Source: Verrucomicrobiota bacterium
GTDB lineage: Bacteria > Verrucomicrobiota > Verrucomicrobiia > Opitutales > Opitutaceae
NCBI GenBank assembly: GCA_014584295.1
Contig: JACTNC010000058.1
Location: forward strand, 148,669 to 212,668
Direction of reading: 5' to 3'
Length of the DNA stretch: 64,000 nt
Below the pieces are notes generated by a model. It was not told the origin of the DNA. It saw nothing but the letters and a program-made list of their open reading frames with translations, and did no database searches. Below are positions 11,669 to 63,802 of this stretch, piece after piece (the first letter of the stretch is position 1; the number at the start of each line of letters is the position of its first letter). The translations under genes and the position numbers were made by a program.

Positions 11669-11706
11669 GTCACATTATAGAGAATCTCTGATGGTTCATG
11701 TGTCGT

Positions 11707-12501: not shown

Positions 12502-12514
12502 GTATTGCAGGAGC

Positions 12515-16140: not shown

Positions 16141-16209
16141 GTGGCTATTATACCTGCCCACAATGATGCGTTGGATTTTCGCTCGAAATCATTTCCCAAA
16201 TTGGCTTTA

Positions 16210-17085: not shown

Positions 17086-17161
17086 CGATGGATGGAAAAA
17101 TCAGGGTTGTTGAAAGTCGTGGGTGCGGACAGGAGGTCGCGCATCGGATTCGCGCACCAAC

Positions 17162-17422
17162 TCAGCCGGCAGCGGGTGGTTTCGGAGCAACAGGCGGCAG
17201 TTTGGGCAGCGTCAGCTTCGGCAACGATGCCGTGCTGGAGGCAACTGCCGCAGCCTGGTTGGACGCTGCAATGTCCGTCAGGACTTCCTTGCGGAAGATC
17301 GGGACCTCGCGGGGGGCGGCGATGCCGATCTTCACGGTGTCGCCGTCGATCCGGGTGATGCGGATCTCAATGTTGCCACCGATGACGATGGCTTCGTTCA
17401 CTCGACGTGTCAGGACTAGCAT
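17162..17422 (-). CDS. csrA: carbon storage regulator / flagellin translational repressor CsrA
   Basis: [47 protein letters not shown] is a canonical CsrA core. ATG at 17420-17422. Carries a Pro/Ala-rich C-terminal tail (..[20 protein letters not shown]). Confidence 0.9.
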
Positions 17423-17438
17423 GGGTGAACGGAGTTTG

Positions 17439-17867
17439 TCAGTTGGTGACCAAGGGGTGGCGTGCGCTGTAGCGGCCGTGATTCGCAATCACAACCTGCT
17501 TCGCAACTCCAGTCCGGCGATTGACGACGACTGGCCCGACGAGATTCACCGTCGCGGTGGGCGGGACGGAACGACTCACCGTGACGATGTTCAGGATGAG
17601 TGCATCCGCCGCATCGCTGATGCCCAGGAAGGACGCATCTTCGTCAAACAGCTCGATTTCGTAGTCCGCCACGATTCCGGCGGGCTCGATCACCACAAAA
17701 TCAACCGGCTCCCCTCCCAGCAGCCGCATCCAGCGGAACGGCAATTGCTCCGGATTGTAGAGCAATTCGAAACCTGTGTGGTCGGGAAATCCCACCAGCC
17801 CCTCCGGCAGCCGGACTTGCTGGGGTGGTGATTCAGGAAGCACGGGGGCTTCTGTGCTGACTTTCAT
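17439..17867 (-). CDS. fliW: flagellar assembly factor FliW
   Basis: [17 protein letters not shown]...PFRWMRLL...FVVIEP matches the FliW family pattern. Sits 16 nt upstream of csrA, as in fliW-csrA-flagellin modules. Confidence 0.85.
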
Positions 17868-35191: not shown

Positions 35192-35242
35192 CAAGTCAAT
35201 CGATAAGACCTGACGCTACGGATGGCCCTCCAATCCCGCGCT

Positions 35243-35668
35243 TTATTCGATCCTATCCAAAACCAGCCGAAAACGGCGCGAACCATGGCGCCGGTAAGTC
35301 CGGAAGCCACGCTCATCCAGCGTCAGAATTTTATCCAGGCCGGTTTCCTCAGCAAGCAACACCAATGTGGCATCGGCAAAGTCCATCGGCGTGTCTGTAT
35401 ATTTACCCATCAGTCGGGCGGCCGCGCGAAGTTGCTCCGGGGCAAAGCAATCCCGAATGACAATCTGGGCGTCATCGAGAAACTCCACCAATACCTCTGC
35501 GCCCCTCGCCTGCCCGCCGATGAAATGCATGGCTTCGGTCACCACAGCTCCCGTGGTCAGCAAGGTTCCGGAAAATGCGGACAAGACCCTGGCACAACGT
35601 TCATGCTGAGGGTCGCCCCGGTTAAGGGCCGCCACCAAGGGGCCGGTATCGAGCAACCAAGAAGTCAC
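35243..35668 (-). CDS. vapC: PIN-domain toxin (VapC-like)
   Basis: PIN acidic residues in WLLDTGPL, VVTEAMHF, MDFADATL and ILTLDERGF. GTG at 35666-35668 overlaps the antitoxin TGA (35665-35667) as GTGA. An alternative ATG at 35704 would overlap by 40 nt. Confidence 0.75.
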   Translation of the reverse strand: MTSWLLDTGPLVAALNRGDPQHERCARVLSAFSGTLLTTGAVVTEAMHFIGGQARGAEVLVEFLDDAQIVIRDCFAPEQLRAAARLMGKYTDTPMDFADATLVLLAEETGLDKILTLDERGFRTYRRHGSRRFRLVLDRIE

Positions 35669-35925
35669 GACCGGGTGTTCATCCGCAGCAGGTGCTCCCG
35701 CCATGGATCCTTGCCTTGGGGCACCGGTGAAAAATCAAGGCGACCCAAGTGGCGTCCGGCCCGCTCGCCCACTGTACCCGGTCGCAGCAGCTGCCCGGCA
35801 ATCAACTCACGCACCAGTTCGGATTCGGTCCGTCCCGAGGCGGCTGCACGCGCACGCAACGCCTTCCGATGGGCTGCCGGCAAACGAATGGTGAGTGTTT
35901 CGGACATGTCGGAAACGTTATCCAT
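35665..35925 (-). CDS. vapB: ribbon-helix-helix (CopG/RHH) antitoxin (VapB-like)
   Basis: RHH pattern ETLTIRLPAAHRKALRARAAASGRTESELVRELI. Candidate ATG starts at 35925 or 35907; the track ORF extends to 36051. Confidence 0.65.
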   Translation of the reverse strand: MDNVSDMSETLTIRLPAAHRKALRARAAASGRTESELVRELIAGQLLRPGTVGERAGRHLGRLDFSPVPQGKDPWREHLLRMNTRS

Positions 35926-36134
35926 CGTAAGACACTCCGCAAGACATAATGGTTCTCGCAACAGCTCCCGGGGTATTTGCCCAAGACATGCCCTGCCAAG
36001 AGAAGTCCGATCGATCTCTCCTTCGCGTCTTCTCGGCTTCGCGTGAGTCATTCACGCTCATGCTTGGCGATGGCAAGATGGGTTCACATGAAGTCACGAA
36101 GACACGAAGGGCTGATGAAATACCGGACAGCTGA

Positions 36135-43211: not shown

Positions 43212-45092
43212 TCAGGCGAAGGCTTGGAGCCGGGATGAGTTTTCGGACGCCTGAGTAGTCTGCGAAGGTGCGACAGGTGCTCCGACTGAGGAGATGCCGC
43301 GGCGGCTGCGCCGAATCACATCAGGGTTGCCGCGTTGGGCCTGCTGAGAGGATTGCCGGGAGGAGTCTCCTCCCATCGAGTAGCCCTGTGCGAAGGCTCC
43401 CTGCTCACTGTTTGACGACGTGTTCGAACTTGAGAACACAGGTTCGGCAAACCGGTAGGGTTTCTGATCGGAAAGGGAGAAGACGTGTTTTTCCCACGCC
43501 GTGCTCAGCGCATTGCGCAGTTCCGGCGAATCGGCATGAAACGTCGCGCGAATTTCGCCATCGCGATAGGACACGCTTACGGCAACACCGACATCATCGA
43601 GCTTCAGCTTGAGATTCACGCCAGAGCGCTCGGTTGCCCACAACACATCCGCGGCATCGGTGATCTGGCGGATCGCTTCCACAGCAGCAACCGCTCCTTT
43701 GCTGTTTGGTACCGCTGCCTCCGAGGCTGCTCGACCCAGAGACCCTTGTTCGGCGGAATGACCGACACCCGATGCGATAGGCTCGCCCTGCAGCGCAGCA
43801 TAACGGGGATGACGGCTATCATGAGGCATGGGAGTCACGAGGGCTGCAGTTTCAGTGCCAACCCGAGAACCGTGATCCATAAGTGACTCATCTAACGAAT
43901 CTAATGATTCCTTTTTATTGATGCCCGTGCTGAGGTTGGCGTCTGTTTTCCGCGTCGATTGGATCTGTGCCGCGCTGCCGGCATATTTTTCCGACGTGAC
44001 CGTTGAGACCCGAATTCCGGCGGCCAGGGAACGGTCCCCAACGACCGCGGCAGGCAGAATTTTGCCGGGTAGGTCTTCGCCTGATTTCAGGGTGTTCCCC
44101 TCAGGAAGTGGGCTTTCGCCCGCGATGTCGGGCTTACCGCCTGAAGCACCTGACAAGGATTTCGAAAGGACATCCGCTGGGTTGGTTTCAGAACTGGCTG
44201 AGGCGGGAATCGTGGAATTTTCGGTGGTTGCAAAGTTGCCCGCGCCCTCACTGCCGGCAAGAAGGGTCATACGAGTTGCAGACATTTGCGGCGCGGGGGC
44301 GGCAACCGAGTCGGCACTAGAGAAGGAGTTCGTTGGAAACGACCCGACGCCTAGACTCCTCCCTAAATGCAGTGCTGAGAGAGATTCGATGCGGTCAACT
44401 ATTCCGGCTCCGGTCGTTTGCGGCATTTCACCCGGCAATTCCGAGTCAGAAAAACTGAGCCATCGCGAACCGAGCGCCTGGCTTGCGAGCACAGGCGAAG
44501 TTTTCATCTCCGACAATAAACGGGGCTCTTTTGCCCGCGCGTCGCACAACGTTAAGTTTAAAGCTGAAGCTGCGTTCGTCTCTTCGGGTTCAACAGGAAA
44601 ATTGGCGGGATTTGCAGTCGCGACCATACTTTTCACCAACGCAAGCGGGGCAGAGACCGTCAGTGAGCCGTCATCCTTTAGCCGCGAATCGGACACGCTT
44701 TGGCCGTCCTCGCCATCAGTTTCTTCGACGCTCTCGTTGTCGTCTGAAACGACTTCGTCCGACACCGCATCCGTGACCGAACCATCGGCATCATCCGGTA
44801 CAGCCTCGGCAGGAGCAATTCCGGGCGTCAGCCCGCATGTCTTTGCCATTGCCAGGTGCATGGGAATGGGTGTGCCTACCGGGGTCATCGCCAAGCCCGC
44901 TACGACAGCCGCATCGATTGCCGGGCTGCCCACCGGTTTGTCGTTACCGACATCAGCGGTTTTCTCAAAAATGTCCGCAAAGGCGCCTGCACAGGCGTCA
45001 CCCTCCATCACATCATCAGGCAGACCCGAATCGGATGCAGGGGAATTCTTAGTTGTCGGTTCGAAGGGAAGGACGGAAGTGGATGGTGACAT
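43212..45092 (-). CDS. fliK: flagellar hook-length control protein FliK
   Basis: Long low-complexity Ser/Ala/Pro-rich protein with a C-terminal Flg_hook-like segment VNLKLKLDDVGVAVSVSYRDGEIRATFHADSPELRNAL. Upstream of flgD. Confidence 0.7.
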   Translation of the reverse strand: MSPSTSVLPFEPTTKNSPASDSGLPDDVMEGDACAGAFADIFEKTADVGNDKPVGSPAIDAAVVAGLAMTPVGTPIPMHLAMAKTCGLTPGIAPAEAVPDDADGSVTDAVSDEVVSDDNESVEETDGEDGQSVSDSRLKDDGSLTVSAPLALVKSMVATANPANFPVEPEETNAASALNLTLCDARAKEPRLLSEMKTSPVLASQALGSRWLSFSDSELPGEMPQTTGAGIVDRIESLSALHLGRSLGVGSFPTNSFSSADSVAAPAPQMSATRMTLLAGSEGAGNFATTENSTIPASASSETNPADVLSKSLSGASGGKPDIAGESPLPEGNTLKSGEDLPGKILPAAVVGDRSLAAGIRVSTVTSEKYAGSAAQIQSTRKTDANLSTGINKKESLDSLDESLMDHGSRVGTETAALVTPMPHDSRHPRYAALQGEPIASGVGHSAEQGSLGRAASEAAVPNSKGAVAAVEAIRQITDAADVLWATERSGVNLKLKLDDVGVAVSVSYRDGEIRATFHADSPELRNALSTAWEKHVFSLSDQKPYRFAEPVFSSSNTSSNSEQGAFAQGYSMGGDSSRQSSQQAQRGNPDVIRRSRRGISSVGAPVAPSQTTQASENSSRLQAFA

Positions 45093-52428: not shown

Positions 52429-53256
52429 ATGCTCGACCGCGACTATCAGTTTATCCGGGAATTGGTATACAGCCATAGCCGGATTCATCTTGGGCCGGCA
52501 AAACGGGAACTCGTGTCCGCGCGGCTCGGTCGACGTCTACGTGCCACCAACCTGACCTCCATTGGAGAATACTGCCGGTTTCTACAGTGCAAGAAGGGTG
52601 AGGAAGAAATCTCGCACCTGATCGATGCAATTTCGACGCATCACACGTCCTTTTTTCGCGAGCCCGCCCATTTCGATTTCCTCTCGAAGACAGCGGTCCC
52701 CGATATGATCGCGCGCCGGGAAGGCCAGTCGTGGCCAACCTTCAAGGTCTGGTGCGCGGCGTGTTCCACGGGAGAGGAGCCCTATTCCATCGCGATGACG
52801 CTGATGCGAGCCTTGGAGCCCGTCAGACCCGCGTGGCCTGTTCATATCGAGGCCACGGACATTTCCCATCGCGTCCTTCAGCGCGCTCGGATCGGTGTCT
52901 ACTCGAAGGAGGCACTGAAAGACCTGCCTGCGCCACTGGTGAGGCGCTGCTTCCAAAAGGGATTCGGCCCCCAGAACGGCAACTATCGCGTGAAGCAGTT
53001 TCTCCAGGATGCGGTCACGTTCCGTCAGATGAACCTCCTCGAGGGTTCACCTCCCTTCAGCGACCGCTACCATGTGATCTTCTGTCGGAACGTCATGATC
53101 TACTTTGACCGTCCGACGCGCCATGAACTCGTGCGGAGGCTCAGCTCCCTGCTCGTGCCGGGCGGCTACCTCATGGTGGGACACTCTGAGAGCCTCACCG
53201 GAATCCATCAGGGACTTGAGCGCGTGGAGTCTGCAACCTACCGGGCACCCCTCTAG
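52429..53256 (+). CDS. cheR: chemotaxis protein methyltransferase CheR
   Basis: CheR N-domain, then ETSFFRE-type THHTSFFREPAHF and SAM motif VWCAACSTGEEPYSIAM. Confidence 0.9.
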   Translation: MLDRDYQFIRELVYSHSRIHLGPAKRELVSARLGRRLRATNLTSIGEYCRFLQCKKGEEEISHLIDAISTHHTSFFREPAHFDFLSKTAVPDMIARREGQSWPTFKVWCAACSTGEEPYSIAMTLMRALEPVRPAWPVHIEATDISHRVLQRARIGVYSKEALKDLPAPLVRRCFQKGFGPQNGNYRVKQFLQDAVTFRQMNLLEGSPPFSDRYHVIFCRNVMIYFDRPTRHELVRRLSSLLVPGGYLMVGHSESLTGIHQGLERVESATYRAPL

Positions 53257-53269
53257 CCCAGCCAAGTCC

Positions 53270-54448
53270 ATGAACGCTCGCAGAATCCGCGTGTTGATTG
53301 TCGATGACTCCGCCGTCACCCGCCTGGCTGTCAACGACGCGCTTGCGGGAGATCCTGAGATCGAGGTTGTAGGAACCGCGATCGATCCCTATGTCGCGCG
53401 TGAAAAGATCGTCGCCCTTAAACCCGACGTTCTGACGCTGGATCTTGAAATGCCGCGAATGGACGGCCTCACCTTCCTTCGCATCCTGATGGCGGAACGA
53501 CCGATGCCCGTTGTAATCCTCAGTTCGCTCACGCCAACGGGATCGCAGCAGGCGCTGGAGGCTCTGCGACTTGGCGCGATCGATGTTCTTGGAAAACCCG
53601 ACTCCACGCAAGTGATGGCAGAGCTCGCTCCTCAGCTTCGTGCAAAGATCAAGATCGCAGCTTCTGCCCGACTGGCCTCGTTTGCCGCCAAGGCATCCCG
53701 CCGGACGCACTCATCCAGTATCGAAAATCCCGATTCATGTTCCGATGCGGGCGTCGGCTCGATCACGCCATCAATCAATCTCCATCCGGCAAACCTCGCG
53801 CGCTCCCATGATCCCCGCCGCCTCATCCTGCTTGGCGCCTCCACTGGAGGAACAGAGGCGTTGCGCGAGATCCTCACCCGGCTGCCGGAAGATTTTCCTC
53901 CGATTTTGATCGTGCAACATATTCCTCCCGTCTTTTCGAAGGCGTTCGCTGAACGGCTTGATGCTCAATGCCGGCTCGAGGTGCGTGAAGCCACCGATGG
54001 CGACCGACTCTCCCAGGGCGTCGCCCTGATCGCACCCGGCGACCGCCACATGCTCGTCGACTGGGAATCAGACGGCTACCGTGTGCGCGTGGTCGGCGGA
54101 CCTCAGGTCTGGTTCCAGCGTCCCGCTGTGGATCTCCTGTTTCGATCGGCCGCAACGACTGCAGGAGAGCACGCCATTGGGGGTGTGCTCACGGGAATGG
54201 GCAAGGATGGCGCAGAGGGCCTTCTGCGATTGCGCGAACACGGAGCCCTCACGTTCTCCCAGGACGAGGAAAGTTCCGCAGTCTACGGAATGCCGAAGGC
54301 CGCATGGGATCTCGGAGGATCGCAGCATCAGATCGCGCTTGCAGATATCGCGTCACATCTCGTTTCCCTCGTGAACTCGGAAGCGGCCGTGCAGGCATGC
54401 TCCCCGTTCAGCAGAACCTCACCCCTTCCCGCACATGCCTCTGGTTGA
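53270..54448 (+). CDS. cheB: chemotaxis response regulator protein-glutamate methylesterase CheB
   Basis: ATG at 53270 gives MNARRIRVLIVDDSAV (REC, phospho-Asp in VLTLDLEMPRMDG). Long linker. Esterase domain LLGASTGGTEAL...GMGKDGAEG. Confidence 0.9.
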   Translation: MNARRIRVLIVDDSAVTRLAVNDALAGDPEIEVVGTAIDPYVAREKIVALKPDVLTLDLEMPRMDGLTFLRILMAERPMPVVILSSLTPTGSQQALEALRLGAIDVLGKPDSTQVMAELAPQLRAKIKIAASARLASFAAKASRRTHSSSIENPDSCSDAGVGSITPSINLHPANLARSHDPRRLILLGASTGGTEALREILTRLPEDFPPILIVQHIPPVFSKAFAERLDAQCRLEVREATDGDRLSQGVALIAPGDRHMLVDWESDGYRVRVVGGPQVWFQRPAVDLLFRSAATTAGEHAIGGVLTGMGKDGAEGLLRLREHGALTFSQDEESSAVYGMPKAAWDLGGSQHQIALADIASHLVSLVNSEAAVQACSPFSRTSPLPAHASG

Positions 54449-56453
54449 ATCCCCTCTCCCCATCCTCGCGGACGCTCCATCTGCCGGACCCGCACTACCG
54501 GTGCGAAATCCCATGCCTTCGCCCTGGGCCTCAGAGTCACCACGCACGACTCCGCGCGGTCCACTGACGTGCGCGCAGTTTGTGATTGATGCTCAGGATC
54601 GAATCAAGGCCCGGCGAATCTCGCAGGAGGACTCCCATTTTGCCCGAGCATGCGAGGGAGCCTCCCTTCGCCAGTTGCTCGCTGAACTCTCCCCGTCTTG
54701 GGACCGCATTCTGCCGGCCTCACTCTTCGAGGCGGAGCATTCACTCTTTCTACCCGAACTGACACCCGGCATGCCCGGCGTGGGACTCGGTTTGCACCGT
54801 CTCCGTTTTGGCGAAGTCATGACCGTGACGCTCGCACCGGAGCTCGCACCGCCCGTCGAACTGAAAAAACTCGGCCTGGCAGACCTGTCCGCAGACCCCG
54901 CATCGTTTGCGCGACTCTTCCTCCGCCTGCGGACAATCGAGGCCAGGCTCGATCAAACGCTCACTCTCCTGCCAGGAGTCGTCTTTCATCAACGCTCGGA
55001 CTTCTCGTTTGCAAGCATCGGGCCTGGTTTTGAGGCCCTTCTTGGAATTTCACCCCAGCCACTCACGAAGAACGGGCAGCCGTTTCTTCGACTCATTCAC
55101 GAAGCCGACGAGCGCGCCTTCCACGCCGAACTTGAGCGAAACCGGATGAACGACCGTCCGTGTTCCCAGGTCTACCGGATCCTGAATCCCCAGTCGGGCG
55201 CCTATCTCTACCTCCTCGACATCCGCACGGCGGTGCGCACTTCCGGCGGACTCGTTCTCGGATACGAAGGCATCTGGCTCGACATCACACGGCAAAAGAT
55301 CGCCGAGCACCGACTCAGCAGCCGGGCATGGCGGGAATCGCTTTCGACGCTCACATCCGGCCTGCTTCAGGACTTCAGCAATGTGATGACCGGCATCTAT
55401 TCGCTGAGTGAACTGTACCACAATACGCTCCCGAACCGGCATCCGCTTCGGGATGGCCTGGGCCTGATCAAGGACAACGCCGGCCAGGCTCAGCGCCTCC
55501 TCCGGAAGATCCTCGATCTGAATCGAGAGGCTTCCGGCGAAAAGACGTACCTCAATCTCGGCCGCATCGTGCGCGAGCAGCTTGACCTGCTGAAGATCAT
55601 CCTGCCCCGCGGCACCCAACTTGCCGGTCCGCTCGAGGACGGGGAGTGGCCTGTGTTCATCGACGAGACGGCGTTCAGGCAGACGCTGGTGAATCTAGCT
55701 ATGAATGCCCGGGACGCACTGCGCGGTCCGGGTGAGATCCGGCTATCGCTCAATCCGGTGGTCGCCGGGCAGATCCCCGCGCCCGGCTCAAGACCGCCTT
55801 TGCCGCCGCAGCGTGCAACATCCGTGGAGCTGATCTTCTCAGACAATGGCACAGGCATCACGCCCGCCCACCTCGATCGCATCTTCGATCCTTTCTTCAC
55901 GACCAAGGATGCCTCACGCGGTGCCGGGCTCGGGCTCTATCACGCCCGTCTTTTTGCAGAGTCCTGCGGAGGTGCCATCGCGGCACGAAGCACGCCTGGA
56001 CGCGGCACCGAAATTGTCCTCGTTCTCCCGCTCGTCGATCTCGACCACTCCCAGCCGCCCATTCCCGGCGAGGCCGCAATACCGCGCACGATTCGCGGAT
56101 TGTACCTCGAACGTGACATGACCGATGAAGGCCCCATCGTGGAATCCCTGCGCTCACGCGAATGGTCCGTCCGCACGATCGCAACGTTTGAACATGCACG
56201 GCGCTACCTGCGCGAGGAGGGCTCACGCCTCGATTTTGTTTTTGTGCGTCAGGACGAACCGGATACGTCGCTGCGCGTATTCCTGGCGGAACTTCGGCGT
56301 GATCATCCCGGTCTCCGTCTGGCGTTGAACATCGCAAATTCCTCTGATGAACAGGCGGGGGCGCTGCGCGCGCAGGTTGACCTCTTCCTCCCGACCGGCA
56401 TCACTGAGTCCGATGCAGTCGACGCCCTCGCGAAGCTGCTTCGCCTTCCATGA
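54435..56453 (+). CDS. soluble PAS-containing histidine-kinase-like protein with Gln at the H-box and a degenerate receiver-like C-terminus
   Basis: PAS-like region, then a DHp helix LSTLTSGLLQDFSNVMTGI (canonical ..GGvAHDFNNLLtvI). N box LVNLAMNARDAL, G1 SDNGTGI, F FDPFFTTK, G2 GAGLGL. C-terminal REC-like fold with LDFVFVRQDEPD. Overlaps the cheB stop by 14 nt. Confidence 0.8.
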   Translation: MPLVESPLPILADAPSAGPALPVRNPMPSPWASESPRTTPRGPLTCAQFVIDAQDRIKARRISQEDSHFARACEGASLRQLLAELSPSWDRILPASLFEAEHSLFLPELTPGMPGVGLGLHRLRFGEVMTVTLAPELAPPVELKKLGLADLSADPASFARLFLRLRTIEARLDQTLTLLPGVVFHQRSDFSFASIGPGFEALLGISPQPLTKNGQPFLRLIHEADERAFHAELERNRMNDRPCSQVYRILNPQSGAYLYLLDIRTAVRTSGGLVLGYEGIWLDITRQKIAEHRLSSRAWRESLSTLTSGLLQDFSNVMTGIYSLSELYHNTLPNRHPLRDGLGLIKDNAGQAQRLLRKILDLNREASGEKTYLNLGRIVREQLDLLKIILPRGTQLAGPLEDGEWPVFIDETAFRQTLVNLAMNARDALRGPGEIRLSLNPVVAGQIPAPGSRPPLPPQRATSVELIFSDNGTGITPAHLDRIFDPFFTTKDASRGAGLGLYHARLFAESCGGAIAARSTPGRGTEIVLVLPLVDLDHSQPPIPGEAAIPRTIRGLYLERDMTDEGPIVESLRSREWSVRTIATFEHARRYLREEGSRLDFVFVRQDEPDTSLRVFLAELRRDHPGLRLALNIANSSDEQAGALRAQVDLFLPTGITESDAVDALAKLLRLP

Positions 56454-57724
56454 CGCCAGGATCCATACCGCCTGCCACCAACTCCATTCTCATCGTCGAC
56501 GATGAGCCGGTCGTGCTCGCCGCGCTAAGGGACACCCTCGAGCGCGAAAAGCACCATGTTGTCGCATGCGACAATCCGCTCAAGGCCTTGGAGGTTCTCC
56601 GCACGCGGCAATTTGCGGTCATTATTTCCGATCAACGCATGCCAGAGATGATGGGGCTGGATTTCCTGATCGAGTCGAAAAAGTTCAATCCGCTCGCCTC
56701 GCGCATCCTCATCACGGCCGTCCTTCTGCTGCCGACGATCATCGACGCCATCAACAAGGGCGAAATCTTTCGGTTTGTTGCGAAACCCTGGCTCCGTGAG
56801 GAACTGTCGGCAACCGTCAAGAATGCCATTTCGCGCTACCAGCTTGTCACCGAGAACGAACGGCTGAACACGGAGACCCGTCGCCTCAACGAACAGCTCA
56901 TCATCGCCAACGCCGCCCTTTCAAGCCAGGTACGAAATCTTGAGGAGCAGAAGGCCGCCCTGGCTGTCGCCAATCGCGGACTCTCCACAAGCTACGATCG
57001 CTCGCTCGAACTTTGCAGCCGAATCCTCAGCACCTACGATCCGTACCTCGCCGGGCGAACCAAGGCGATGGTCGAGATCGCGCAGAAGATGGCCGACACC
57101 GACCATTTCAACGAGAAGGAAAAGCATGTGCTGAAGGCAAGTGCGTGGCTGTGCGACCTCGGACTGATCGGCATCCCAAGGGACATGCTCCGCCTGTACC
57201 GCTCCCAGCCGGAAAAATTGAGCGACGCCGACAAGCTCACCATCAACAGCCATCCGGTTTACAGCCAGACGCTGGCATCCTACGTCGACAGCCAGCCGGA
57301 GGTCGGCGAGACGATTCGCGCCCATCATGAGCGTTTCGACGGCGGCGGGTATCCCGACCGCCTCTCGCGAGAATCCATTCCGTGGGCAGCGCGCTGCCTT
57401 GCTGTCGCCGTCTGGTTTGTCGAAACCGGCCTCCCCAAGGACCAGGCGATCGAAGCCGTGCTCGCAGAATCAGGAACCGCCTTGGATCCCGAGGCCGTGA
57501 GGTTGTTTCTGAAGGTCAGCCATCTGCTGCAACTGCCCCGCAAAGTCAGCGAAATCATGCTCGATGAACTGCAGCCCGGCATGGTCCTTGCCAATGGGCT
57601 GTACAGCCCTCACGGCCTGTTGTTGGTGGGTGAGGGACAGACCCTCAACGCTGGCACAATTTCAAAGATCCGAAACCATAACCTGATGACGCCCATAAGC
57701 CAGCGACTCCTGGTCTACAGTTGA
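56450..57724 (+). CDS. response regulator with HD-GYP domain (putative c-di-GMP phosphodiesterase)
   Basis: REC domain ILIVDDEPVV..AVIISDQRMPEMMG, a coiled-coil linker, and HD-GYP motifs ..HHERFDGGGYPDRL. The ATG overlaps the upstream TGA as ATGA (56450-56453). Confidence 0.9.
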   Translation: MTPGSIPPATNSILIVDDEPVVLAALRDTLEREKHHVVACDNPLKALEVLRTRQFAVIISDQRMPEMMGLDFLIESKKFNPLASRILITAVLLLPTIIDAINKGEIFRFVAKPWLREELSATVKNAISRYQLVTENERLNTETRRLNEQLIIANAALSSQVRNLEEQKAALAVANRGLSTSYDRSLELCSRILSTYDPYLAGRTKAMVEIAQKMADTDHFNEKEKHVLKASAWLCDLGLIGIPRDMLRLYRSQPEKLSDADKLTINSHPVYSQTLASYVDSQPEVGETIRAHHERFDGGGYPDRLSRESIPWAARCLAVAVWFVETGLPKDQAIEAVLAESGTALDPEAVRLFLKVSHLLQLPRKVSEIMLDELQPGMVLANGLYSPHGLLLVGEGQTLNAGTISKIRNHNLMTPISQRLLVYS

Positions 57725-57942
57725 TCTCAAAGAAACGGCGTATACGCCACGGATGCGCAAATTGCGCGCATTGCCCAGGCCAATCACCCGTCCCGGGTGC
57801 GGTGTATTCCTTGTGGATTACTCAAGTTTACCCCTAGGGAACCGAAGTTATCGAGATGGACGATTCCGTCCCTAATTTTCTCGTGGCCCCTGCCATTGCC
57901 TCGGGGCGAAATGACCCGAGGTGACGGGAGGGGAAAATATTC

Positions 57943-58464
57943 ATGTCCGGATCCCCCGTCATCCCTGCACTCTTTGCACAACGCGTCGTCATAGGCGTGG
58001 GCGATCTCGCGGTTTCCAATAATCCGCAAGTCACGCTGAGCACTTACGCGCTGGGTTCCTGTGTCGGTGTCATCGCCTATGATCCTGTCGTGAAGGCCGG
58101 CGGCATTCTGCACATCATGCTGCCTGACTCCCTCATCTCCCCCGACAAGGCCGCGAAACAGCCCGCGATGTTCGCCGACACCGGACTGCCAATCTTCTTC
58201 CGTTCGCTATCGGGCATGAAGGTCGAACGCAGCCGGATGAGGGTCTTCCTGGCGGGCGGAGCAAGCGTGCTCAATGGAACCGATCCCTTCAAGATCGGCG
58301 AACGCAATGCTGCTTCCGTCCGGAAGATCCTCGACGTCTATCAGATCGCAATCTGTGGCGAGGACATCGGAGGAAACGTGAATCGTACGGTTCACCTGGA
58401 ACTCGCGTCCGGCTCCCTCATCTTGAAAACGCCGGACCGGACCGAGCAATATTCCCTGGCGTAG
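57943..58464 (+). CDS. cheD: chemoreceptor glutamine deamidase CheD
   Basis: LGSCVGVIAYDPVVKAGGILHIMLP is the CheD catalytic Cys/His region. 173 aa. GGGAGGGG lies 8 nt upstream of the ATG. Confidence 0.85.
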   Translation: MSGSPVIPALFAQRVVIGVGDLAVSNNPQVTLSTYALGSCVGVIAYDPVVKAGGILHIMLPDSLISPDKAAKQPAMFADTGLPIFFRSLSGMKVERSRMRVFLAGGASVLNGTDPFKIGERNAASVRKILDVYQIAICGEDIGGNVNRTVHLELASGSLILKTPDRTEQYSLA

Positions 58465-58473
58465 GAAACAGCC

Positions 58474-60528
58474 ATGCCCGCCTCCGCATACATCCTCGTT
58501 TCACTGATCGTGATCGCTCTCTTGGCCGGTGCAGGCATGTGGCTGCGCGCGGCCCTCGCGCGACACTCCACGGCTGTTCGAAAAGCCGCCCTGCTTTCAA
58601 GTCAGCTCCAGTTCCAGAACTACCTCGACGATCTTCCCTGCGAATGCTGGGCAATCGACGAATCCGGCCGCTTCTGCCTCTTCAACCGGCTCGCAAGGAC
58701 CCGGCGCGGTGACGGATGCCTCGGAAAGACACCCGCGGAATGTGAGCATCTGCGTACCCCTGAAACGCATCCAATCTGGGAAACAGCAATTCATCGTGCC
58801 TTCGCCGGCGAACGTGTCACCTACCGATATGTCGCCCCGGAGACAGCCGGAACGCGCCACTACGAAGCAGTGATCACGCCAATGCGCTCCGGCGAGAAGA
58901 TCATCGGTGTCATCGGCCACCATGTCGACATCACCGCCGAAGTCGCTGCTGAAACCGCCCGATGCGCGGCGGAAAAAAATCTTGCCGTGCTGACTTCACA
59001 GTCACCGTCAGGATTCATCGACTGGGATGGGGATTTCCGAATACGCTCATGGAATCCGGCCGCCGAGGCGATCTTCGGCATTTCTGCTTCGGAAGCGATC
59101 GGTCAAAATGGCATCGATCTGCTGTTTCCTGTCAACGAACGCACCGCAGTGGAGGCTGCATGGCGCGAGGCTCAGCTCGACAGAAGCGCCCACCGCATAC
59201 ATCACACGCACAACCGGCGCGACGGCAGCCGCAGGATGTGCGAATGGGTCCACACCGCATCAGTCGATTCCAAGGGAGCGCTCACGGGCATGACCTCCTT
59301 CGTCGAGGATATCACGGTACGCGGCGATCTCGAGGCCCAGTTGAGAAACATCCAGCGACTCGATTCGATGGGACAGCTTGCCTGCGGTCTCGCCCAGGAG
59401 TTGAATCATCTTTTCACACCAGCGATCATCCATCTCGATCTTCTTGAAAACGCCCATCGCGAATTCCCCGGGCTCAGGGATCAGGTCAAGCCTGTGAGGG
59501 AAGCGGTCACGCAGGCCATCGCTCTCGGTCAGCGAATCCTCGCGCTGGGTCGCAACAGCGAATCCGAACCCACGGTCTGGCAGCCGCTCAACCCGCATGT
59601 GCGGGACACGGTCGAACTTCTTCGTCGCACGCTGGATTCCCGCCTTCGAGTCATCGTCCTGCTCTCTCCCGATCTCCCTCCGCTGCCCTTGCAGCCGGCC
59701 CTGATCACCCAGATCGTGATCAACCTGCTTTGCAATGCCCGCGACGCCTTGCTCGAAAGGCTCGGCCAGACTCCCTCTCGCGACTGGAAGCCCATCATAC
59801 GCGTCAGCACCTCGACCCTCATGGCGACGGATCGGAGCGCCATGTGTGGGCAATCGCAGGGACTGCCCCGCCTCTGTCAGTGTATTGAGATCAGCGATAC
59901 AGGCTCAGGCATGTCCGAGGAGGTACAGCAGCGGATCTTTGAACCCTTCTTCACCACAAAGGCACCTGGCCGCGGCACCGGTCTCGGACTGCCGATCACC
60001 CGCAAGGGTGTACAGGCTCTGGGAGGCTGGATCGAGTTTGAAAGCACGCCCGGTGAAGGCACGACATTCCGCGTGTATCTCCCGAGCCCCAGGCCCATGG
60101 CCGCACCCCAGTTGAATTCACCCGCACCTGCAACGGAGTCCGCGGGCCCAGGTCGACATATTCTGCTCGCCGAAGACGACGAGATGGTGGCAAGCGCATT
60201 GACGATCGGACTCCAACGCTCAGGGCATCGTGTGACCGCTGCGGCCGACGGCGCCGCCGCTCTCGCATTGATTCGCCTCGAACCCACCGGATACGACCTC
60301 GTCGTCACGGACCTGAACATGCCCAACCTCGGCGGCCGCGATCTGCTTGCCGCCCTTGCACGTGACGGCATAGCCGTGCCTGTCGTGGTGCTCAGCGGCT
60401 ACATCACCACCGCCATTCTCGAAGAACTCCGAAGCCTCGGTGCGGCCGAAGTCCTGCGCAAACCGATACGTGTCTGCGAACTTCTCACCGCCATCCGGCG
60501 CAACAGCACGCCTCTGGCCACGACGTGA
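58474..60528 (+). CDS. membrane-anchored PAS/PAS hybrid histidine-kinase-like protein with Gln at the H-box and a canonical C-terminal receiver
   Basis: N-terminal TM ILVSLIVIALLAGAGMWL and two PAS-like segments. DHp helix MGQLACGLAQELNHLFTPA. N box VINLLCNARDAL, G1 ISDTGSGM, F FEPFFTTK, G2 GTGLGL. REC domain ILLAEDDE..DLVVTDLNMPNLGG. Confidence 0.85.
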   Translation: MPASAYILVSLIVIALLAGAGMWLRAALARHSTAVRKAALLSSQLQFQNYLDDLPCECWAIDESGRFCLFNRLARTRRGDGCLGKTPAECEHLRTPETHPIWETAIHRAFAGERVTYRYVAPETAGTRHYEAVITPMRSGEKIIGVIGHHVDITAEVAAETARCAAEKNLAVLTSQSPSGFIDWDGDFRIRSWNPAAEAIFGISASEAIGQNGIDLLFPVNERTAVEAAWREAQLDRSAHRIHHTHNRRDGSRRMCEWVHTASVDSKGALTGMTSFVEDITVRGDLEAQLRNIQRLDSMGQLACGLAQELNHLFTPAIIHLDLLENAHREFPGLRDQVKPVREAVTQAIALGQRILALGRNSESEPTVWQPLNPHVRDTVELLRRTLDSRLRVIVLLSPDLPPLPLQPALITQIVINLLCNARDALLERLGQTPSRDWKPIIRVSTSTLMATDRSAMCGQSQGLPRLCQCIEISDTGSGMSEEVQQRIFEPFFTTKAPGRGTGLGLPITRKGVQALGGWIEFESTPGEGTTFRVYLPSPRPMAAPQLNSPAPATESAGPGRHILLAEDDEMVASALTIGLQRSGHRVTAAADGAAALALIRLEPTGYDLVVTDLNMPNLGGRDLLAALARDGIAVPVVVLSGYITTAILEELRSLGAAEVLRKPIRVCELLTAIRRNSTPLATT

Positions 60529-60845: not shown

Positions 60846-61715
60846 TCAAAACTTGAGCATGCCGTGAAGCAGATTCTCACGGAGCAGCCTGCTTGAGCGT
60901 GCAAGCACATCAGGCAGCGCGGACTCCAGCACGGCTGCGCTGTATCCCCACTCGATCAGCAATCCCGAATGCAGCTCAAACAGGAACCCATCCTCGGCCA
61001 CACCCGCACCCAGTGAGGCCGCGAGGTACTTGGCCGCATGGACATTCACGAGCAGCGGCATCATCTCCGCAGGAGCCGAGTGTGTCGGAGGGTTGAAGGA
61101 GGCCACGGCGACCAGGCATTCCGGGAAGTTCCATTTTCTGAGGAGCGTTGATCCCACCTCGGCGTGGTTGAATCCGAGGATCGCCTTCTCCGAGGCCAGC
61201 CAGACACAGCGGTTCGCCTGCTGATGCGCACGGATCCGCGCGAAGTGATCACTGCACGAATACGCCACTGCCAGTTTGCCCACTTCGTGGACAAGTCCGG
61301 CAGTGTAGGCGGTGCGTGGCTCCACACCGCCGACTTTCTCCGCGAGACACTCCGCGGCGACCGCCGTCACAAGGGCCAAGCGGCAGAAGTCCCCCGCTTC
61401 CCAGCGATAACCATCCGTATCCAGGGTCATCCAACGGCCGGCGAGTGACAGCGCCGCCAGCCTGAAAATCTCCTTCAATCCCAATCGCTGGAGCGCCTCC
61501 TCCAGGCTCTCCACGCGATTGCTGCCCGCTGCAAAGTAGGCTGAATTCGCCAGCCGCAGCGTCGAACTCGCCAGGACGGGATCCAGGCGGATGACCTTCT
61601 CGAGCTCCTCGATGGATACATCCTCCTTTTCGATCACCTCAATGATGCGGGGAAGCAGCACCGGTGAACACGGCAGCCGGAGCGCCTTTTGACAGACTTC
61701 ATCAATGGTGATCAT
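60846..61715 (-). CDS. HDOD-domain signalling protein
   Basis: LPCSPVLLPRIIEVIEKEDVSIEELEKVIRLDPVLASSTLRLANSAYF is the HDOD signature region. Lies 23 nt downstream of cheA. Confidence 0.8.
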   Translation of the reverse strand: MITIDEVCQKALRLPCSPVLLPRIIEVIEKEDVSIEELEKVIRLDPVLASSTLRLANSAYFAAGSNRVESLEEALQRLGLKEIFRLAALSLAGRWMTLDTDGYRWEAGDFCRLALVTAVAAECLAEKVGGVEPRTAYTAGLVHEVGKLAVAYSCSDHFARIRAHQQANRCVWLASEKAILGFNHAEVGSTLLRKWNFPECLVAVASFNPPTHSAPAEMMPLLVNVHAAKYLAASLGAGVAEDGFLFELHSGLLIEWGYSAAVLESALPDVLARSSRLLRENLLHGMLKF

Positions 61716-61738: not shown

Positions 61739-63802
61739 TCAGGCAGCAATAAGAGCGTCCGGGTTCAGGATAAGCGCAACCTGTCCATCACCCAGGATTG
61801 CTCCCCCGGTGATTCCAGGCAGACGCGACATGTATCCTCCGAGGTCCTTGATCACCACTTCCTGCTTGCTGACCATTTCATCCACGAGCAACGCCATGAC
61901 CCGGTCCGAAGTTTTCACGAGGAGGAGGATGCCCTTCGTCGGATCCTCAATCGCCCCTGGTATTTGGAAGGTTCGGTGGAGCCGATGCACCGGAAGGATT
62001 CGTCCGCGATTGTCGAGCACCTCACCACGCCCCTGAACGGTCGAGATCACACCGGCATCCGGGCGGACCGCCATCTGCACATTTGCACTGGGAAGAATAA
62101 ACCGATCTGCGCCAACACGGACCACCACTCCGTCGATGATGGCCATGGTCAAGGGAAGCGTGATCCTGAAGGTCGTGCCCATTCCGGGTGAAGTCTCGAT
62201 TCTCACGGAACCGCGCAGGTTGATGATATTGCGACGGACAACGTCCATGCCTACACCGCGGCCCGAAAGCGATGTGACCGCCTCGGTAGTCGAGAACCCC
62301 GATGCAAAGATCAAATTGAGCTTCTCTTCGCGGGACAGCACCGCATTCGACGGGATGATGCCCTTTTCCACCGCCTTCGCAAAGACAACCTCTGGATCAA
62401 TACCCCTGCCGTCGTCGCTGAGATCGATCCGCACGTGTGAACCTTCCTGCGATGCCCTAAGAACAATCATTCCACTCTCCGGCTTGCCCGATGCAACGCG
62501 CTCTTCCGGCGATTCAATCCCATGATCCATGGCATTCCTGATCATGTGCACGAGCGGATCCGCCATATCCTCCACCACCGTCCGGTCGATCTCAATGTCC
62601 GCGCCAATGGCCTGAAACGAACACTTCCTGTTCCCCTGCCTCGTCAGATCCCGCACGAGGCGTCCCATTTTCTGGAACAACGGCCTGATGGGAACCATCC
62701 GAAGCGCCATCGCGTGATTCTGAAGCCCGCGGGTAATGCGGCTGAGCCGGGCAATCGTCTGCTGAAGATCCGGGCACTCTCCGATCATCGCGCGCGACGC
62801 CTCCACCACCTGCGTCTGCGCAATCACCAGTTCCCCCACCGCCTCCATCATTGTATCCAGCTTTTCAGTACTGATACGAATCGTGCGTGATGTGCCTTGA
62901 TCACCGTCGGCGCCGGTCACTTTATCAGCATTCCCCGGACGAGCGACCAAGTCCTTCTGGCACAAAACCGCATCCTCCTGGCGTCGCTCAGCGAGCTGCC
63001 TTACCGATGCGATCAGGTGTTCGACGGGAACAATCTCCTCAGGTGGATCACCCTTTTCGAGCGCGACTCCGACCTGCCTCACCAGGCGCTGCATGGCATC
63101 GCGACAATGGAGGATTGTCGTTATGATTTCCGGCGTAAGCATCAGCGAACCGGCTCTCGCGCTGTCGAGAAGCGACTCAACCTCGTGGGAAAGACCCTGC
63201 AGCGGAGCAAGGTGAAGAAAACCCGAAACACCCTTGAGGGTATGGAACGAACGGAACATCCGGTCGAGCGCCTCGCGGTTCCTCGGTTCCTCATCCAGCT
63301 TCAGCAAAGATGACTCAATCTGATGCAGGTGGTCGAGCGCCTCGGCGTGAAATTCCTCAAGAAGATCGCGATTCTCGGCGAGATCAAGGACGAGCAGGCG
63401 ATCCAAGGTCACGGGCTCTGCTCGGCTTTCTCCACCGAAACTCAGGCTTCCGGACTTCTCCCTGGTGCCGCGGGTCTGGCCGCCTCCCAGCACCGGAACC
63501 TCCGCGCCTGCGCGCACCGCCGCCATCGCACCCGGCAGCCATTCGATCAGGTTTCCCAGCGCGGTGAGCGATACCTCGTCGAACGGCCTCGCGCCATCGA
63601 TCAGGTGGTCCAATGTCGCACGCATCTGCAGAACCTGCTGCGCAACGGAAGGAACGGGACCGAGTACATCCGCGATTTCTGAAAGCAGGCTGTACGACGG
63701 GATCAATCCGTCATCGCGGCCCGGCCGCGCGAGCACGAATTCGCTCGCGAGGCGGTTGACCGCCTCGTCAACGGTTGCGTAGATGGAGGAAGAGAGCGAC
63801 AT
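61739..63802 (-). CDS. cheA: chemotaxis histidine kinase CheA
   Basis: Hpt motif FRSFHTLKGVSGFL, a dimerisation region, HATPase boxes (HMIRNAMDHG; DDGRGID; GRGVGMDVV) and a C-terminal CheW-like domain. Confidence 0.95.
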   Translation of the reverse strand: MSLSSSIYATVDEAVNRLASEFVLARPGRDDGLIPSYSLLSEIADVLGPVPSVAQQVLQMRATLDHLIDGARPFDEVSLTALGNLIEWLPGAMAAVRAGAEVPVLGGGQTRGTREKSGSLSFGGESRAEPVTLDRLLVLDLAENRDLLEEFHAEALDHLHQIESSLLKLDEEPRNREALDRMFRSFHTLKGVSGFLHLAPLQGLSHEVESLLDSARAGSLMLTPEIITTILHCRDAMQRLVRQVGVALEKGDPPEEIVPVEHLIASVRQLAERRQEDAVLCQKDLVARPGNADKVTGADGDQGTSRTIRISTEKLDTMMEAVGELVIAQTQVVEASRAMIGECPDLQQTIARLSRITRGLQNHAMALRMVPIRPLFQKMGRLVRDLTRQGNRKCSFQAIGADIEIDRTVVEDMADPLVHMIRNAMDHGIESPEERVASGKPESGMIVLRASQEGSHVRIDLSDDGRGIDPEVVFAKAVEKGIIPSNAVLSREEKLNLIFASGFSTTEAVTSLSGRGVGMDVVRRNIINLRGSVRIETSPGMGTTFRITLPLTMAIIDGVVVRVGADRFILPSANVQMAVRPDAGVISTVQGRGEVLDNRGRILPVHRLHRTFQIPGAIEDPTKGILLLVKTSDRVMALLVDEMVSKQEVVIKDLGGYMSRLPGITGGAILGDGQVALILNPDALIAA

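Follow-up and report, generated by a model that had tools for sequence, protein, structure and literature searches.

Two histidine kinase (HK) homologs of an Opitutaceae bacterium, HK1 and HK2, carry glutamine in place of the phospho-acceptor histidine while their ATP sites are intact and their genes are under strong selection, and they therefore probably serve as phosphatases or as regulators devoid of kinase activity, and not as kinases. The explanation that best fits the data, held here with moderate confidence, is that both are histidine pseudokinases, HK1 being a putative phosphatase or binder and HK2 a putative receiver-driven module. With Gln at the acceptor position, neither protein is expected to autophosphorylate at the canonical site.

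Genomic setting, domain organization, and acceptor site

The analysis covered 64,000 nt (the window) of Verrucomicrobiota bacterium (Opitutaceae) assembly GCA_014584295.1, contig JACTNC010000058.1, positions 148,669 to 212,668 of the forward strand. The genes for HK1 and HK2 are set in a flagellar/chemotaxis cluster (Table 1). The start of HK1 overlaps the cheB stop, and the upstream cheR/cheB order is repeated in loci L001, L003, L004, and L005. The 64-kb window encodes three receivers only, those of CheB, the REC-HD-GYP regulator, and HK2, and no CheY; among the kinases encoded there, CheA alone retains an acceptor His, which lies in its HPt domain.

Table 1. Features of the HK1-HK2 region (positions within the window)
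Feature	Position	Strand	Remarks
cheR	52429-53256	+	Upstream of HK1, in an operon-like array with cheB
cheB	53270 (probable start)-54448	+	REC plus methylesterase; upstream, operon-like array
HK1, 672 aa	54435-56453	+	ORF; Pfam PAS_3, HATPase_c
HK1 acceptor codon CAG (Gln312)	55368-55370	+	H-box LTSGLLQDFSNVMTGI; Asp313 at +1, Asn316 at +4
HK1 catalytic ATP-binding (CA) domain	55542-56030	+	N424, D470xGxG, FDPFFTTK, GAGLGL
HK1 C-terminal pseudo-receiver	56094-56441	+	Arg605 at phospho-Asp position; conserved Lys absent
Response regulator REC-HD-GYP	56450-57724	+	ATGA overlap with HK1
cheD	57943-58464	+	Pfam CheD, E 1e-26
HK2, 684 aa	58474-60528	+	ORF, Pfam, CckA alignment
HK2 acceptor codon CAG (Gln308)	59395-59397	+	H-box LACGLAQELNHLFTPA; Glu309 at +1, His312 at +4
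HK2 His312 codon	59407-59409	+	Acceptor +4 position
HK2 receiver	60160-60498	+	Pfam Response_reg E 1e-19; D613 codon 60310-60312
HDOD protein	60846-61715	-	Convergent with HK2; ortholog domain calls in L001/L005
CheA	61739-63802	-	Convergent with HK2; acceptor His187 of the HPt domain (FHTLKG); ortholog domain calls in L001/L005

HK1 comprises a disordered N terminus, a PAS-like domain (about aa 45 to 145), a PAS domain (182 to 283), DHp (297 to 362), CA (370 to 532), and a pseudo-receiver (554 to 669). In the AF2 model (pLDDT 79), the DHp helices span residues 297 to 331 and 337 to 362 and are followed by the CA domain at 370 to 532, which superposes on the CA domain of CckA (5idm) with a TM score of 0.78; Foldseek matches this model to PAS-containing HKs and to CckA, HK853, ZraS, and CpxA. 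A helical DHp hairpin with a CA domain of Bergerat fold after it is supported by the model and by Foldseek and, for both HK1 and HK2, by phmmer alignment to CckA 5idj. HK2 consists of a hydrophobic N-terminal segment, two PAS domains, DHp, CA, and a canonical receiver.

A preliminary description of this DNA had noted both kinase ORFs, with Gln where the acceptor His is expected; the ORFs are present as described, and alignments to CckA 5idj and to orthologs place Gln312 of HK1 and Gln308 of HK2 at that position. For HK1 (E 1e-23), the CckA segment 'gqlaggvaHdfnnll' pairs with 'lstltsgllQdfsnvm', and for HK2 (E 2e-28) with 'mgqlacglaQelnhlf'; both alignments are gapless around the site. Furthermore, 58 HK1 orthologs have His in the same gapless column as Gln312, and His-bearing relatives of HK2 carry 'GLAHEFNNLF'. 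The register check that had been proposed yielded no alternative alignment with His at the acceptor position. The Pfam HisKA model (PF00512) scores 15.8 bits on HK1, below its cut-off of 26.9, and has no match on HK2.

The C-terminal domains likewise agree with that description, which assigned HK1 a receiver-like fold lacking the phospho-Asp, and HK2 a canonical receiver together with a His one helical turn downstream of the acceptor site. Residues 554 to 669 of HK1 give no Pfam Response_reg match, but in the AF2 model they adopt a (beta-alpha)5 fold, with five beta-alpha units, and they align to a REC profile in hhalign with a probability of 96.9% (E 1.4e-10), Arg605 being paired with the Asp. 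The phospho-Asp column holds Arg in 62 of the 63 His-less HK1 family members and is variable in the others; the pseudo-receiver is ancestral to the whole HK1 family. Conversely, the HK2 receiver has EDD at 567 to 569, the phospho-Asp D613, S641, and K663, all of which are canonical in every ortholog, and the downstream His is His312, at +4.

Turnover and independent loss of the acceptor histidine

The HK1 ortholog family comprises 121 Opitutales sequences, 63 His-less and 58 His-bearing. The survey of homologs for Q versus H that the preliminary description had suggested gives H58/Q25/D24/N12/E2 for the column of Gln312, and shows the HK2 Gln to be fixed in its own clade, which reaches down to 59% identity. 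By Fitch parsimony, at least 11 acceptor changes occurred inside one Opitutaceae subclade and none in the outgroups; for example, the His-bearing P0002 shares 93% identity with P0003, which has Asn. A genetic-code calculation indicates that no more than half of the single-nucleotide non-synonymous changes from H, Q, N, D, or E stay within this set, so the chance that 11 neutral changes would all fall inside it is below about 0.5^11. The restriction of the HK1 acceptor to these five residues points to a side chain that keeps a polar role.

Losing the acceptor His is rare elsewhere. The published base rate for HisKA domains without the His is 0.9% (PMC12632262), and all 141 other CckA-like representatives retrieved with HK2 whose H-box could be aligned have His; Gln in both HK1 and HK2 thus exceeds chance. 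The preliminary description had drawn an argument from the same substitution occurring in two paralogs, and this argument is not supported. HK1 and HK2 are 30% identical over PAS-DHp-CA, and both are more closely related to proteins with the His than to one another (P0002, P0004, and P0006-12 for HK1; P0130 and deeper relatives for HK2), so that, judging from these comparisons, the two Gln are convergent, independent events and not one inherited state.

That the missing His is an artefact or a sign of decay, whether through sequencing error, a wrong register, or incipient pseudogenization, is exceedingly improbable. The weak or absent HisKA matches would fit such an origin, as would further lesions in the sister lineages of HK2, in which P0259 combines Ala at the acceptor with a decayed F box and P0130 keeps the acceptor His with a decayed F box. 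However, the same Gln occurs in independent assemblies (P0001, 99% identical, and P0121, 96%), the alignments both to CckA and to His-bearing orthologs are gapless, and the Gln of HK2 is fixed across its clade. This origin was tested and rejected on the basis of the intact ORFs, the dN/dS of 0.09 to 0.15, and the recurrence of the same Gln in independent assemblies.

ATP-binding boxes, selection, and candidate functions

The N, G1, F, and G2 boxes, which the preliminary description had called canonical, are intact in both proteins: NLAMNARDA, DNGTGI, FDPFFTTK, and GAGLGL in HK1; NLLCNARDA, DTGSGM, FEPFFTTK, and GTGLGL in HK2. All HK1 members, 63/63 without and 58/58 with the acceptor His, have N424, D470, G474, G498, G500, and L501, while G472 is found in 63/63 and 56/58, respectively, and the other box residues are nearly invariant; the boxes are also conserved throughout the HK2 Gln clade. 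Neither protein has a degenerate or occluded ATP site of the DivL or PsmA kind. The estimated dN/dS is 0.09 to 0.12 for HK1 (0.04 to 0.05 in DHp, the most constrained part of the gene) and 0.15 for HK2 (0.06 in DHp), comparable to cheR, cheD, and the REC-HD-GYP regulator, all figures being approximate because dS is saturated (above 1). Both proteins combine a retained HK fold, a replaced acceptor His, and purifying selection, a combination expected of a histidine pseudokinase.

The conservation of the ATP boxes is stricter than a passive nucleotide cofactor obviously requires, which leaves room for real ATP-dependent chemistry. The CA domains might, for instance, still pass the ATP phosphate elsewhere, to the His of a partner kinase in a heterodimer or split kinase or to a Ser, Thr, Tyr, or Asp. 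Rhodobacter CheA4 phosphorylates CheA3 in trans. Split histidine kinases are an established concept (PMC3591291), and the strictness of the four boxes in all His-less HK1 orthologs and the whole HK2 Gln clade is in keeping with this idea. We nevertheless consider it quite unlikely: no candidate acceptor was found, both HKs of the cluster lack the His, neither Q nor N can take up phosphate, D has not become fixed in the column, and the His-less HK1 members share no conserved residue that sets them apart.

A shifted acceptor, namely His312 in HK2 or His329 or His336 in HK1, is very unlikely. In the HK2 clade, the change of His to Gln at the acceptor is accompanied by Asn to His at +4 (HEFNN to QELNH), and His329 and His336 are invariant in the very clade in which the canonical position varies. 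However, the +4 residue of HK2 is Arg in the relatives P0128 and P0259, which argues against such a shift there, and His312 is followed by Leu instead of the acidic residue that HisKA autophosphorylation requires at acceptor +1 (PMC3510030). As for HK1, the end of helix 1 holds His329 and the hairpin loop His336. These residues are 17 and 24 positions away from the acceptor site, are remote in the AF2 model from where the CA domain docks, and are equally conserved in relatives that retain the canonical His. Thus, among the interpretations listed in the preliminary description, that of pseudokinases or phosphatases gained from the repeated Q/N/D/E replacements, the constrained DHp, CA, and regulator, and the D-x-x-N motif, whereas that of a shifted acceptor is not supported for HK2, given the Arg in P0128 and P0259 and the lack of an acidic neighbor of His312.

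The partner of HK1 is the REC-HD-GYP regulator, to which it is translationally coupled throughout the Opitutales, with overlap and gene order conserved across 41% to 82% identity. The receiver of the regulator, which best matches those of the REC-HD proteins 2rjn and 3hv2, is canonical (D17, D18, D61, T89, K112), and these residues are invariant whatever the HK1 acceptor state. The HD-GYP domain (Pfam HD_5, E 2e-26) has an intact HHERFDGGGYP, but its HD dyad is Cys235-Asp236, Leu replaces the Lys after the dyad, and Arg replaces the first metal-binding His. Because of the Cys-Asp dyad and this missing His, hydrolysis of c-di-GMP by the regulator is uncertain. The presence of cheA or cheW beside the module does not correlate with His loss in the loci compared: L005 has cheA and His, whereas L003 has Asp and no cheA nearby.

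As histidine pseudokinases, the two proteins would act differently. HK1 would dock its partner regulator via the conserved DHp surface and act on the phosphorylated form, most likely as a nucleotide-assisted phosphatase using Asn316 or at least as a phospho-form-specific binder, with the PAS domains and the pseudo-receiver as inputs. The phosphoryl groups of the regulator would come from another donor, the neighboring CheA being the obvious candidate given that the 64-kb window has no CheY. HK1 retains the D-x-x-N phosphatase motif (Asp313, Asn316), and in HisKA proteins a His-to-Ala change abolishes kinase activity and largely spares phosphatase activity, for which the +4 Asn is essential (PMC3510030); HisKA phosphatase activity can do without the conserved His (PMC12632262). 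A published survey argues that such activity is not a general explanation of pseudo-histidine kinases (PMC12632262). In the orthologs, the +4 position is N58/58 among the His-bearing members versus N31/S23/T6/D3 among the His-less ones, and with this relaxation phosphatase activity may not be the conserved function clade-wide. In HK2, the usual place of the phosphatase Asn or Thr is taken by His312. With the acceptor His and the +4 Asn/Thr missing and the receiver perfect, HK2 most likely works in reverse: its own receiver would be phosphorylated by CheA or another kinase, and this phosphorylation would control the conformation or interactions of the dead kinase core. In favor of this reading, the receiver residues stay canonical in all HK2 orthologs, while the kinase parts of sister lineages (P0259, P0130) carry other lesions.

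An unlikely alternative is that HK1 and HK2 are sensors or scaffolds with no catalysis at all, whose dead cores bind a regulator, phosphorylated or not, or CheA or a CckA-like HK, and signal allosterically. DivL, which has Tyr for His, sets the precedent: it is neither kinase nor phosphatase and binds DivK~P via its DHp docking surface (PMC4211667). The relaxation of the +4 Asn in many His-less HK1 orthologs, its absence from HK2, and the status of DHp as the most conserved domain are consistent with such a role. However, DivL is a weak binder of ATP and the ATP boxes are gone from PsmA, whereas the ATP-box residues here are invariant despite saturated synonymous sites, for which a pure scaffold has no need; moreover, HK1 of the window retains D313 and N316. 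More speculatively, and with low confidence, the acceptor position of the HK1 family could be, in this Opitutaceae lineage, an evolutionary toggle among closely related strains between His (bifunctional kinase/phosphatase) and Q/N/D/E (no kinase) with the ATP site intact. Either the His-less alleles would run an ATP-dependent reaction that bypasses phospho-His, or selection would repeatedly switch the REC-HD-GYP pathway linked to che from a kinase-driven to a phosphatase-only logic and back.

Significance and comparison with known systems

Few His-less HK homologs have been studied, DivL and PsmA among them, and in these normal ATP binding is lost as well. The HK1 family is a natural mutagenesis series at the acceptor (H, Q, N, D, E), sometimes between 93%-identical proteins, in which the ATP-binding residues and the regulator-docking helix are frozen and a fixed partner regulator adjoins. 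These natural alleles make testable the role of an ATP-competent kinase core once phosphorylation is lost and show how two-component pathways tied to chemotaxis/flagellar clusters can undergo rewiring. The findings are limited in scope: the verrucomicrobial lineage is uncultured, and a phosphatase or binder, which is the likeliest answer, is conceptually already known.

In both proteins, the DHp-CA core is matched best, by sequence and by structure, by the bifunctional HisKA kinase/phosphatase CckA of Caulobacter (5idj/5idm), which they resemble in the H-box context (xDFxN / xELNx) and in the N, G1, F, and G2 boxes; the hybrid PAS-DHp-CA-REC layout of CckA is also that of HK2. However, the acceptor H322 of CckA is Gln in both, and both score far under the NCBIfam CckA equivalog cut-offs. 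In the alignments, the c-di-GMP-binding positions Y514/K518/W523 of CckA are occupied by R505/E509/A514 in HK1 and by R510/Q514/W519 in HK2, and CckA-type regulation by c-di-GMP is therefore not evidently conserved. ShkA of Caulobacter (6qrj, among the structural matches of HK1) likewise has DHp-CA followed by a pseudo-receiver, which gates its kinase core and binds c-di-GMP through R324/Y338/R344/S347 on the alpha4-beta5-alpha5 face (PMC6969517), but it retains its own His plus a second, canonical receiver. The strict linkage and translational coupling of HK1 to a REC-HD-GYP regulator recall RpfC/RpfG, except that the kinase partner in this lineage lacks the acceptor His and the HD-GYP domain has Cys-Asp for His-Asp and lacks the first metal-binding His.

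The H-box His is also absent from PsmA of Streptomyces, which has a hybrid PAS-DHp-CA...REC architecture, and its orthologs differ in the acceptor residue (E, D, Q, V, Y), as do the members of the HK1 family (PMC12963549). However, key ATP-binding residues are missing from PsmA, as is the D/ExxT/N motif, and the Asp of its receiver is dispensable, whereas HK1 keeps D-x-x-N and all ATP boxes and HK2 all ATP boxes and a canonical receiver. DivL, too, is a PAS-containing HK homolog maintained by selection after replacement of the acceptor His, and its DHp reads a response regulator (PMC4211667). It differs in its Tyr, poor ATP binding, and occluded nucleotide site, against Gln and canonical ATP boxes in HK1 and HK2, in having no fused receiver or pseudo-receiver, and in regulating CckA in the cell cycle, whereas HK1 and HK2 sit in a che/HD-GYP module. 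HK1 and HK2 are thus of a known kind, that of DivL and PsmA, and their unusual feature is the fully preserved ATP site.

Gene setting of the two His-less kinases

The two kinase-like genes, HK1 and HK2, belong to a chemotaxis-type array that borders a large flagellar gene cluster and takes up the final 14 kb of the window. Their closest public relatives all come from metagenome-assembled Opitutaceae/Opitutales (Verrucomicrobiota), and the exact HK1 sequence of the window is absent from the protein collection. The cheR-cheB-HK1-regulator module, in which the regulator is a REC-HD-GYP protein, adjoins flgB at all loci inspected, the most distant at 41% identity, and the regulator start is overlapped by the HK1 stop in all of these loci; HK1 and the regulator are an ancestral cognate pair. 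Only three receivers could be detected in the whole 64-kb window (those of CheB, the regulator and HK2); a stand-alone CheY was not found, despite the presence of cheA, cheR, cheB, cheD and fliM. The gene after cheA in relatives is cheW, just past the position matching the window end.

Features of the window (nucleotide positions)
Feature	Position	Strand	Remark
Low-GC island	10000-16000
Long ORFs in low-GC island	10640-11668, 11707-12534, 12802-14454		no Pfam match
Polysacc_synt flippase	14830-16161		in low-GC island
Flagellin gene	16210-17085
Long ORF in flagellar cluster	17088-17831	+	no Pfam match at E 0.001 or better
Long ORF in flagellar cluster	35222-36046	+	no Pfam match at E 0.001 or better
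Long ORF in flagellar cluster	43212-45092	-	no Pfam match at E 0.001 or better
fliF, fliE, flgC, flgB		-	flagellar side of array
cheR	52429-53256	+
cheB	53270-54448	+	start probable
HK1	54435-56453	+	aa 1-145, 54435-54869; acceptor codon, 55368-55370
REC-HD-GYP response regulator	56450-57724	+
HD-GYP motifs of regulator	57038-57067, 57140-57169, 57323-57358	+
cheD	57943-58464	+
HK2	58474-60528	+	acceptor codon, 59395-59397
HDOD protein and cheA		-	downstream of HK2, convergent

Loss of the phospho-acceptor His could not be tied to gene content: across the window and four loci of relatives (L001, L003, L004 and L005), there is no consistent pattern with the presence of cheA, cheW or HK2 or with the CheB receiver. 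A REC-CheB is encoded in the window, L003, L004 and L005. One close relative, whose HK1 is 82% identical and likewise carries Gln, has CheB called as 237 aa comprising the methylesterase domain only (L001 9301-10014, L002 200-913), which leaves two explanations, a CheB that lacks its receiver or a difference in gene calling. Elsewhere, the 626-aa Pfam-negative ORF at 43212-45092 in the flagellar cluster lies between flagellar genes, and its relatives in L001 and L003-L005 likewise lack Pfam matches. The low-GC island (0.47-0.50 versus ∼0.60 elsewhere), located between glycosyltransferase genes and the flagellin gene, may be a flagellin-glycosylation or polysaccharide locus gained by horizontal transfer.

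Register and origin of the acceptor glutamines

The preliminary description placed Gln exactly where the phospho-acceptor His is expected in both proteins, and this register proved correct. In phmmer alignments against the CckA DHp-CA structure 5idj, which are gap-free near the site, CckA “gqlaggvaHdfnnll” pairs with “lstltsgllQdfsnvm” in HK1 (Gln312) and with “mgqlacglaQelnhlf” in HK2 (Gln308). When HK1 and 120 orthologs were aligned with MAFFT, 58 sequences had His in exactly the Gln column, and distant HK2 relatives read “GLAHEFNNLF” or “GVAHEFNNLL” at the H-box. The acceptor codon is CAG in both genes, one transversion from CAY. Sequencing error, already doubted, is excluded by the same Gln in homologs from independent assemblies, P0001 (99%) and P0121 (96%). 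Also confirmed were the canonical N, G1, F and G2 boxes of both proteins, the canonical receiver at the HK2 C terminus (D613), and the receiver-like HK1 C terminus, with Arg605 at the phospho-Asp position. The HK1 fold assignment rests on hhalign against a REC profile (probability 96.9%, E 1.4e-10) and on the AF2 model, a (beta-alpha)5 fold, because a PDB-sequence profile search with this domain gave only weak receiver matches (CpxR, E 0.0015) alongside designed proteins. Given that the published base rate of HisKA domains without His is 0.9% (PMC12632262) and that 141/141 further CckA-like representatives whose H-box could be aligned in an exhaustive HK2 search carry His, two His-less kinases within 6 kb are not a chance occurrence. 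Artefact and gene decay were both rejected as explanations of the missing His.

The earlier argument that the same substitution in two paralogs is telling gives way to one from convergence. HK1 and HK2 are 30% identical over PAS-DHp-CA, and each has much closer His-bearing relatives: P0002, P0004 and P0006-P0012 for HK1 (70-81% identical), and P0130 (43%) followed by P0260-P0268 (34-41%) for HK2. As judged from contigs of equal length, an HK1 with His and an HK2 with Gln share one contig in two cases (P0002 with P0126; P0007 with P0128), and both proteins carry His on one contig at L005 (P0011 with P0130). Judged from these relationships, the two glutamines are convergent.

Constraint in the HK1 and HK2 families

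The HK1 acceptor column comprises H58, Q25, D24, N12 and E2. On a neighbour-joining tree built with this column masked, all outgroups carry His, and Fitch parsimony places at least 11 acceptor changes within one Opitutaceae subclade. Ten further HK1 outgroup genes from GTDB Opitutales/Verrucomicrobiota all read HDFxN; the contig scan that yielded them, whose matches were swamped by the generic N-box pattern, recovered only distant relatives (≤41% identity) and unrelated kinases, with no close relatives. Acceptor changes can be recent, because P0002 (His) and P0003 (Asn) differ at this position at 93% identity. No residue other than H, Q, N, D or E occurs there. Of the single-nucleotide non-synonymous changes that the genetic code allows for any one of these residues, no more than half stay within the set, so that the chance of 11 neutral changes all doing so would be roughly <0.5^11 by our calculation, which assumes uniform mutation. 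Since such an outcome is unlikely under neutrality, the side chain at this position seems to have retained a polar function other than that of acceptor.

The key ATP-box residues are kept with or without the His. All 63 His-less and all 58 His-bearing members have N424, D470, G474, G498, G500 and L501, and G472 is invariant in the former and present in 56/58 of the latter. Relative to L001 and L005, HK1 dN/dS is 0.09-0.12 overall, on par with cheR, cheD and the regulator, and is lowest in DHp (0.04-0.05), compared with 0.10-0.13 in CA and 0.07-0.08 in the pseudo-receiver; dS is saturated, making these values approximate. The phospho-Asp is missing from the pseudo-receiver across the whole family, so this degenerate domain predates the loss of His. 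The +4 position, counted from the acceptor, loosens together with the His: it is Asn in 58/58 His-bearing members and N31/S23/T6/D3 in the His-less ones. The HK1 of the window retains Asp313 and Asn316. In an abundant metagenomic subclade (P0015-P0059), which comprises ∼25 clusters at the 90% identity level, the proteins are 498-566 aa long, are missing approximately the first 100 residues and have the H-box QDFGS, with Gln at the acceptor and Ser for Asn at +4. In the window's HK1, the first 39 residues are disordered and Pro-rich; residues ∼45-145 are confidently modelled as a beta-rich PAS-like domain with no Pfam match and a family-conserved motif, LFLPE...G.GL.LHRLR. This domain may be an uncharacterised sensor domain.

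In HK2, the nine nearest clusters (90% identity; 59-96% identical to HK2) all carry Gln, and their N, G1, F and G2 boxes and receiver signatures are all retained; +4 is His in 8/9 and Arg in P0128. More distantly, P0259 (45% identical) combines Ala at the acceptor and Arg at +4 with a decayed F box, “FEPMIKAGA”, and an N box whose first Asn is replaced by Gln; P0130 keeps the His with an F box decayed to “FEPFAKRRG”. The canonical receiver is preserved across the orthogroup, P0130 and P0259 included. The whole orthogroup looks released from kinase constraint, with lesions that differ by lineage.

Possible mechanisms and known pseudo-histidine kinases

It is firmly supported that HK1 and HK2 are both functional genes whose products are not phosphorylatable at the canonical site. 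The interpretations offered in the preliminary description are borne out in part. The pseudokinase or phosphatase branch is favoured by the conserved DHp surface and the retained Asn316 of HK1. A shifted acceptor is disfavoured: the +4 His of HK2 is replaced by Arg in P0128 and P0259, and the candidate compensatory residues of HK1, His329 and His336, lie at the hairpin end of DHp and are equally conserved in His-bearing close relatives.

Most likely, HK1 would dock its co-translated regulator via the conserved DHp surface and act on the phosphorylated form. [quoted passage not shown] Asn316 of HK1 is the counterpart of the CrdS phosphatase Asn. The EnvZ phosphatase is stimulated by ADP/ATP, and nucleotide-assisted phosphatase activity would give HK1 a reason to retain its ATP site. 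The regulator would then have to receive its phosphate from a different protein; in CheA, encoded nearby, HPt His187 is intact. Regulator residues D17, D18, D61, T89 and K112 are invariant whether the adjoining HK1 carries His, Gln or Asp. The HD-GYP centre of the regulator is degenerate, making its enzymatic output uncertain: it reads “PYLAGRTKA” where HD-GYP enzymes show ..GHS.., with Arg for the first metal-binding His, and “WLCDLGLI” versus “LLHDIGKL”, with Cys235-Asp236 for His-Asp and Leu for Lys, while HHERFDGGGYP is intact. The Cys-Asp dyad is invariant in five species; Tyr-Asp or His-Asp occupies the same site in related Verrucomicrobiota (L009, L010, L012 and L013).

In HK2, the His and the +4 Asn/Thr are both missing and the receiver is perfect. 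By analogy, HK2 is best read as a receiver-controlled pseudokinase in which information flow would be reversed as in DivL (PMC4211667). A catalysis-free, DivL-like sensor would fit the relaxed +4 position but not the strict conservation of the ATP boxes. That conservation would be explained if phosphate passed from ATP to a partner kinase or a non-canonical acceptor, but no candidate for such an acceptor was found, and a search for residues conserved solely in the His-less HK1 members returned none.

HK1 and HK2 belong to a known category, the pseudo-histidine kinases, and a literature search found nothing on this kinase family or on Opitutaceae chemotaxis kinases. The system is unusual and useful in that nature supplies a well-sampled series of alleles at the acceptor, with the ATP site intact and the partner fixed. 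Both cores resemble CckA in sequence and structure but lack the defining acceptor His and fall short of the Pfam threshold of HisKA. CckA-like control by c-di-GMP is unsupported, the site Y514/K518/W523 being R/E/A in HK1 and R/Q/W in HK2 in the alignments to 5idj. The DHp-CA-pseudo-receiver layout of HK1 recalls ShkA, whose pseudo-receiver binds c-di-GMP (PMC6969517); similar binding by the HK1 pseudo-receiver is a lead suggested by this analogy. The HK1-regulator pair is similar to RpfC/RpfG-type systems, except for the Cys-Asp dyad and the Arg in the HD-GYP domain. DivL binds ATP poorly, whereas the ATP boxes of HK1 and HK2 are canonical. PsmA, in contrast to both proteins, has lost its ATP boxes; it has also lost the D/ExxT/N motif, but its acceptor residue varies among orthologs, as in the HK1 family.
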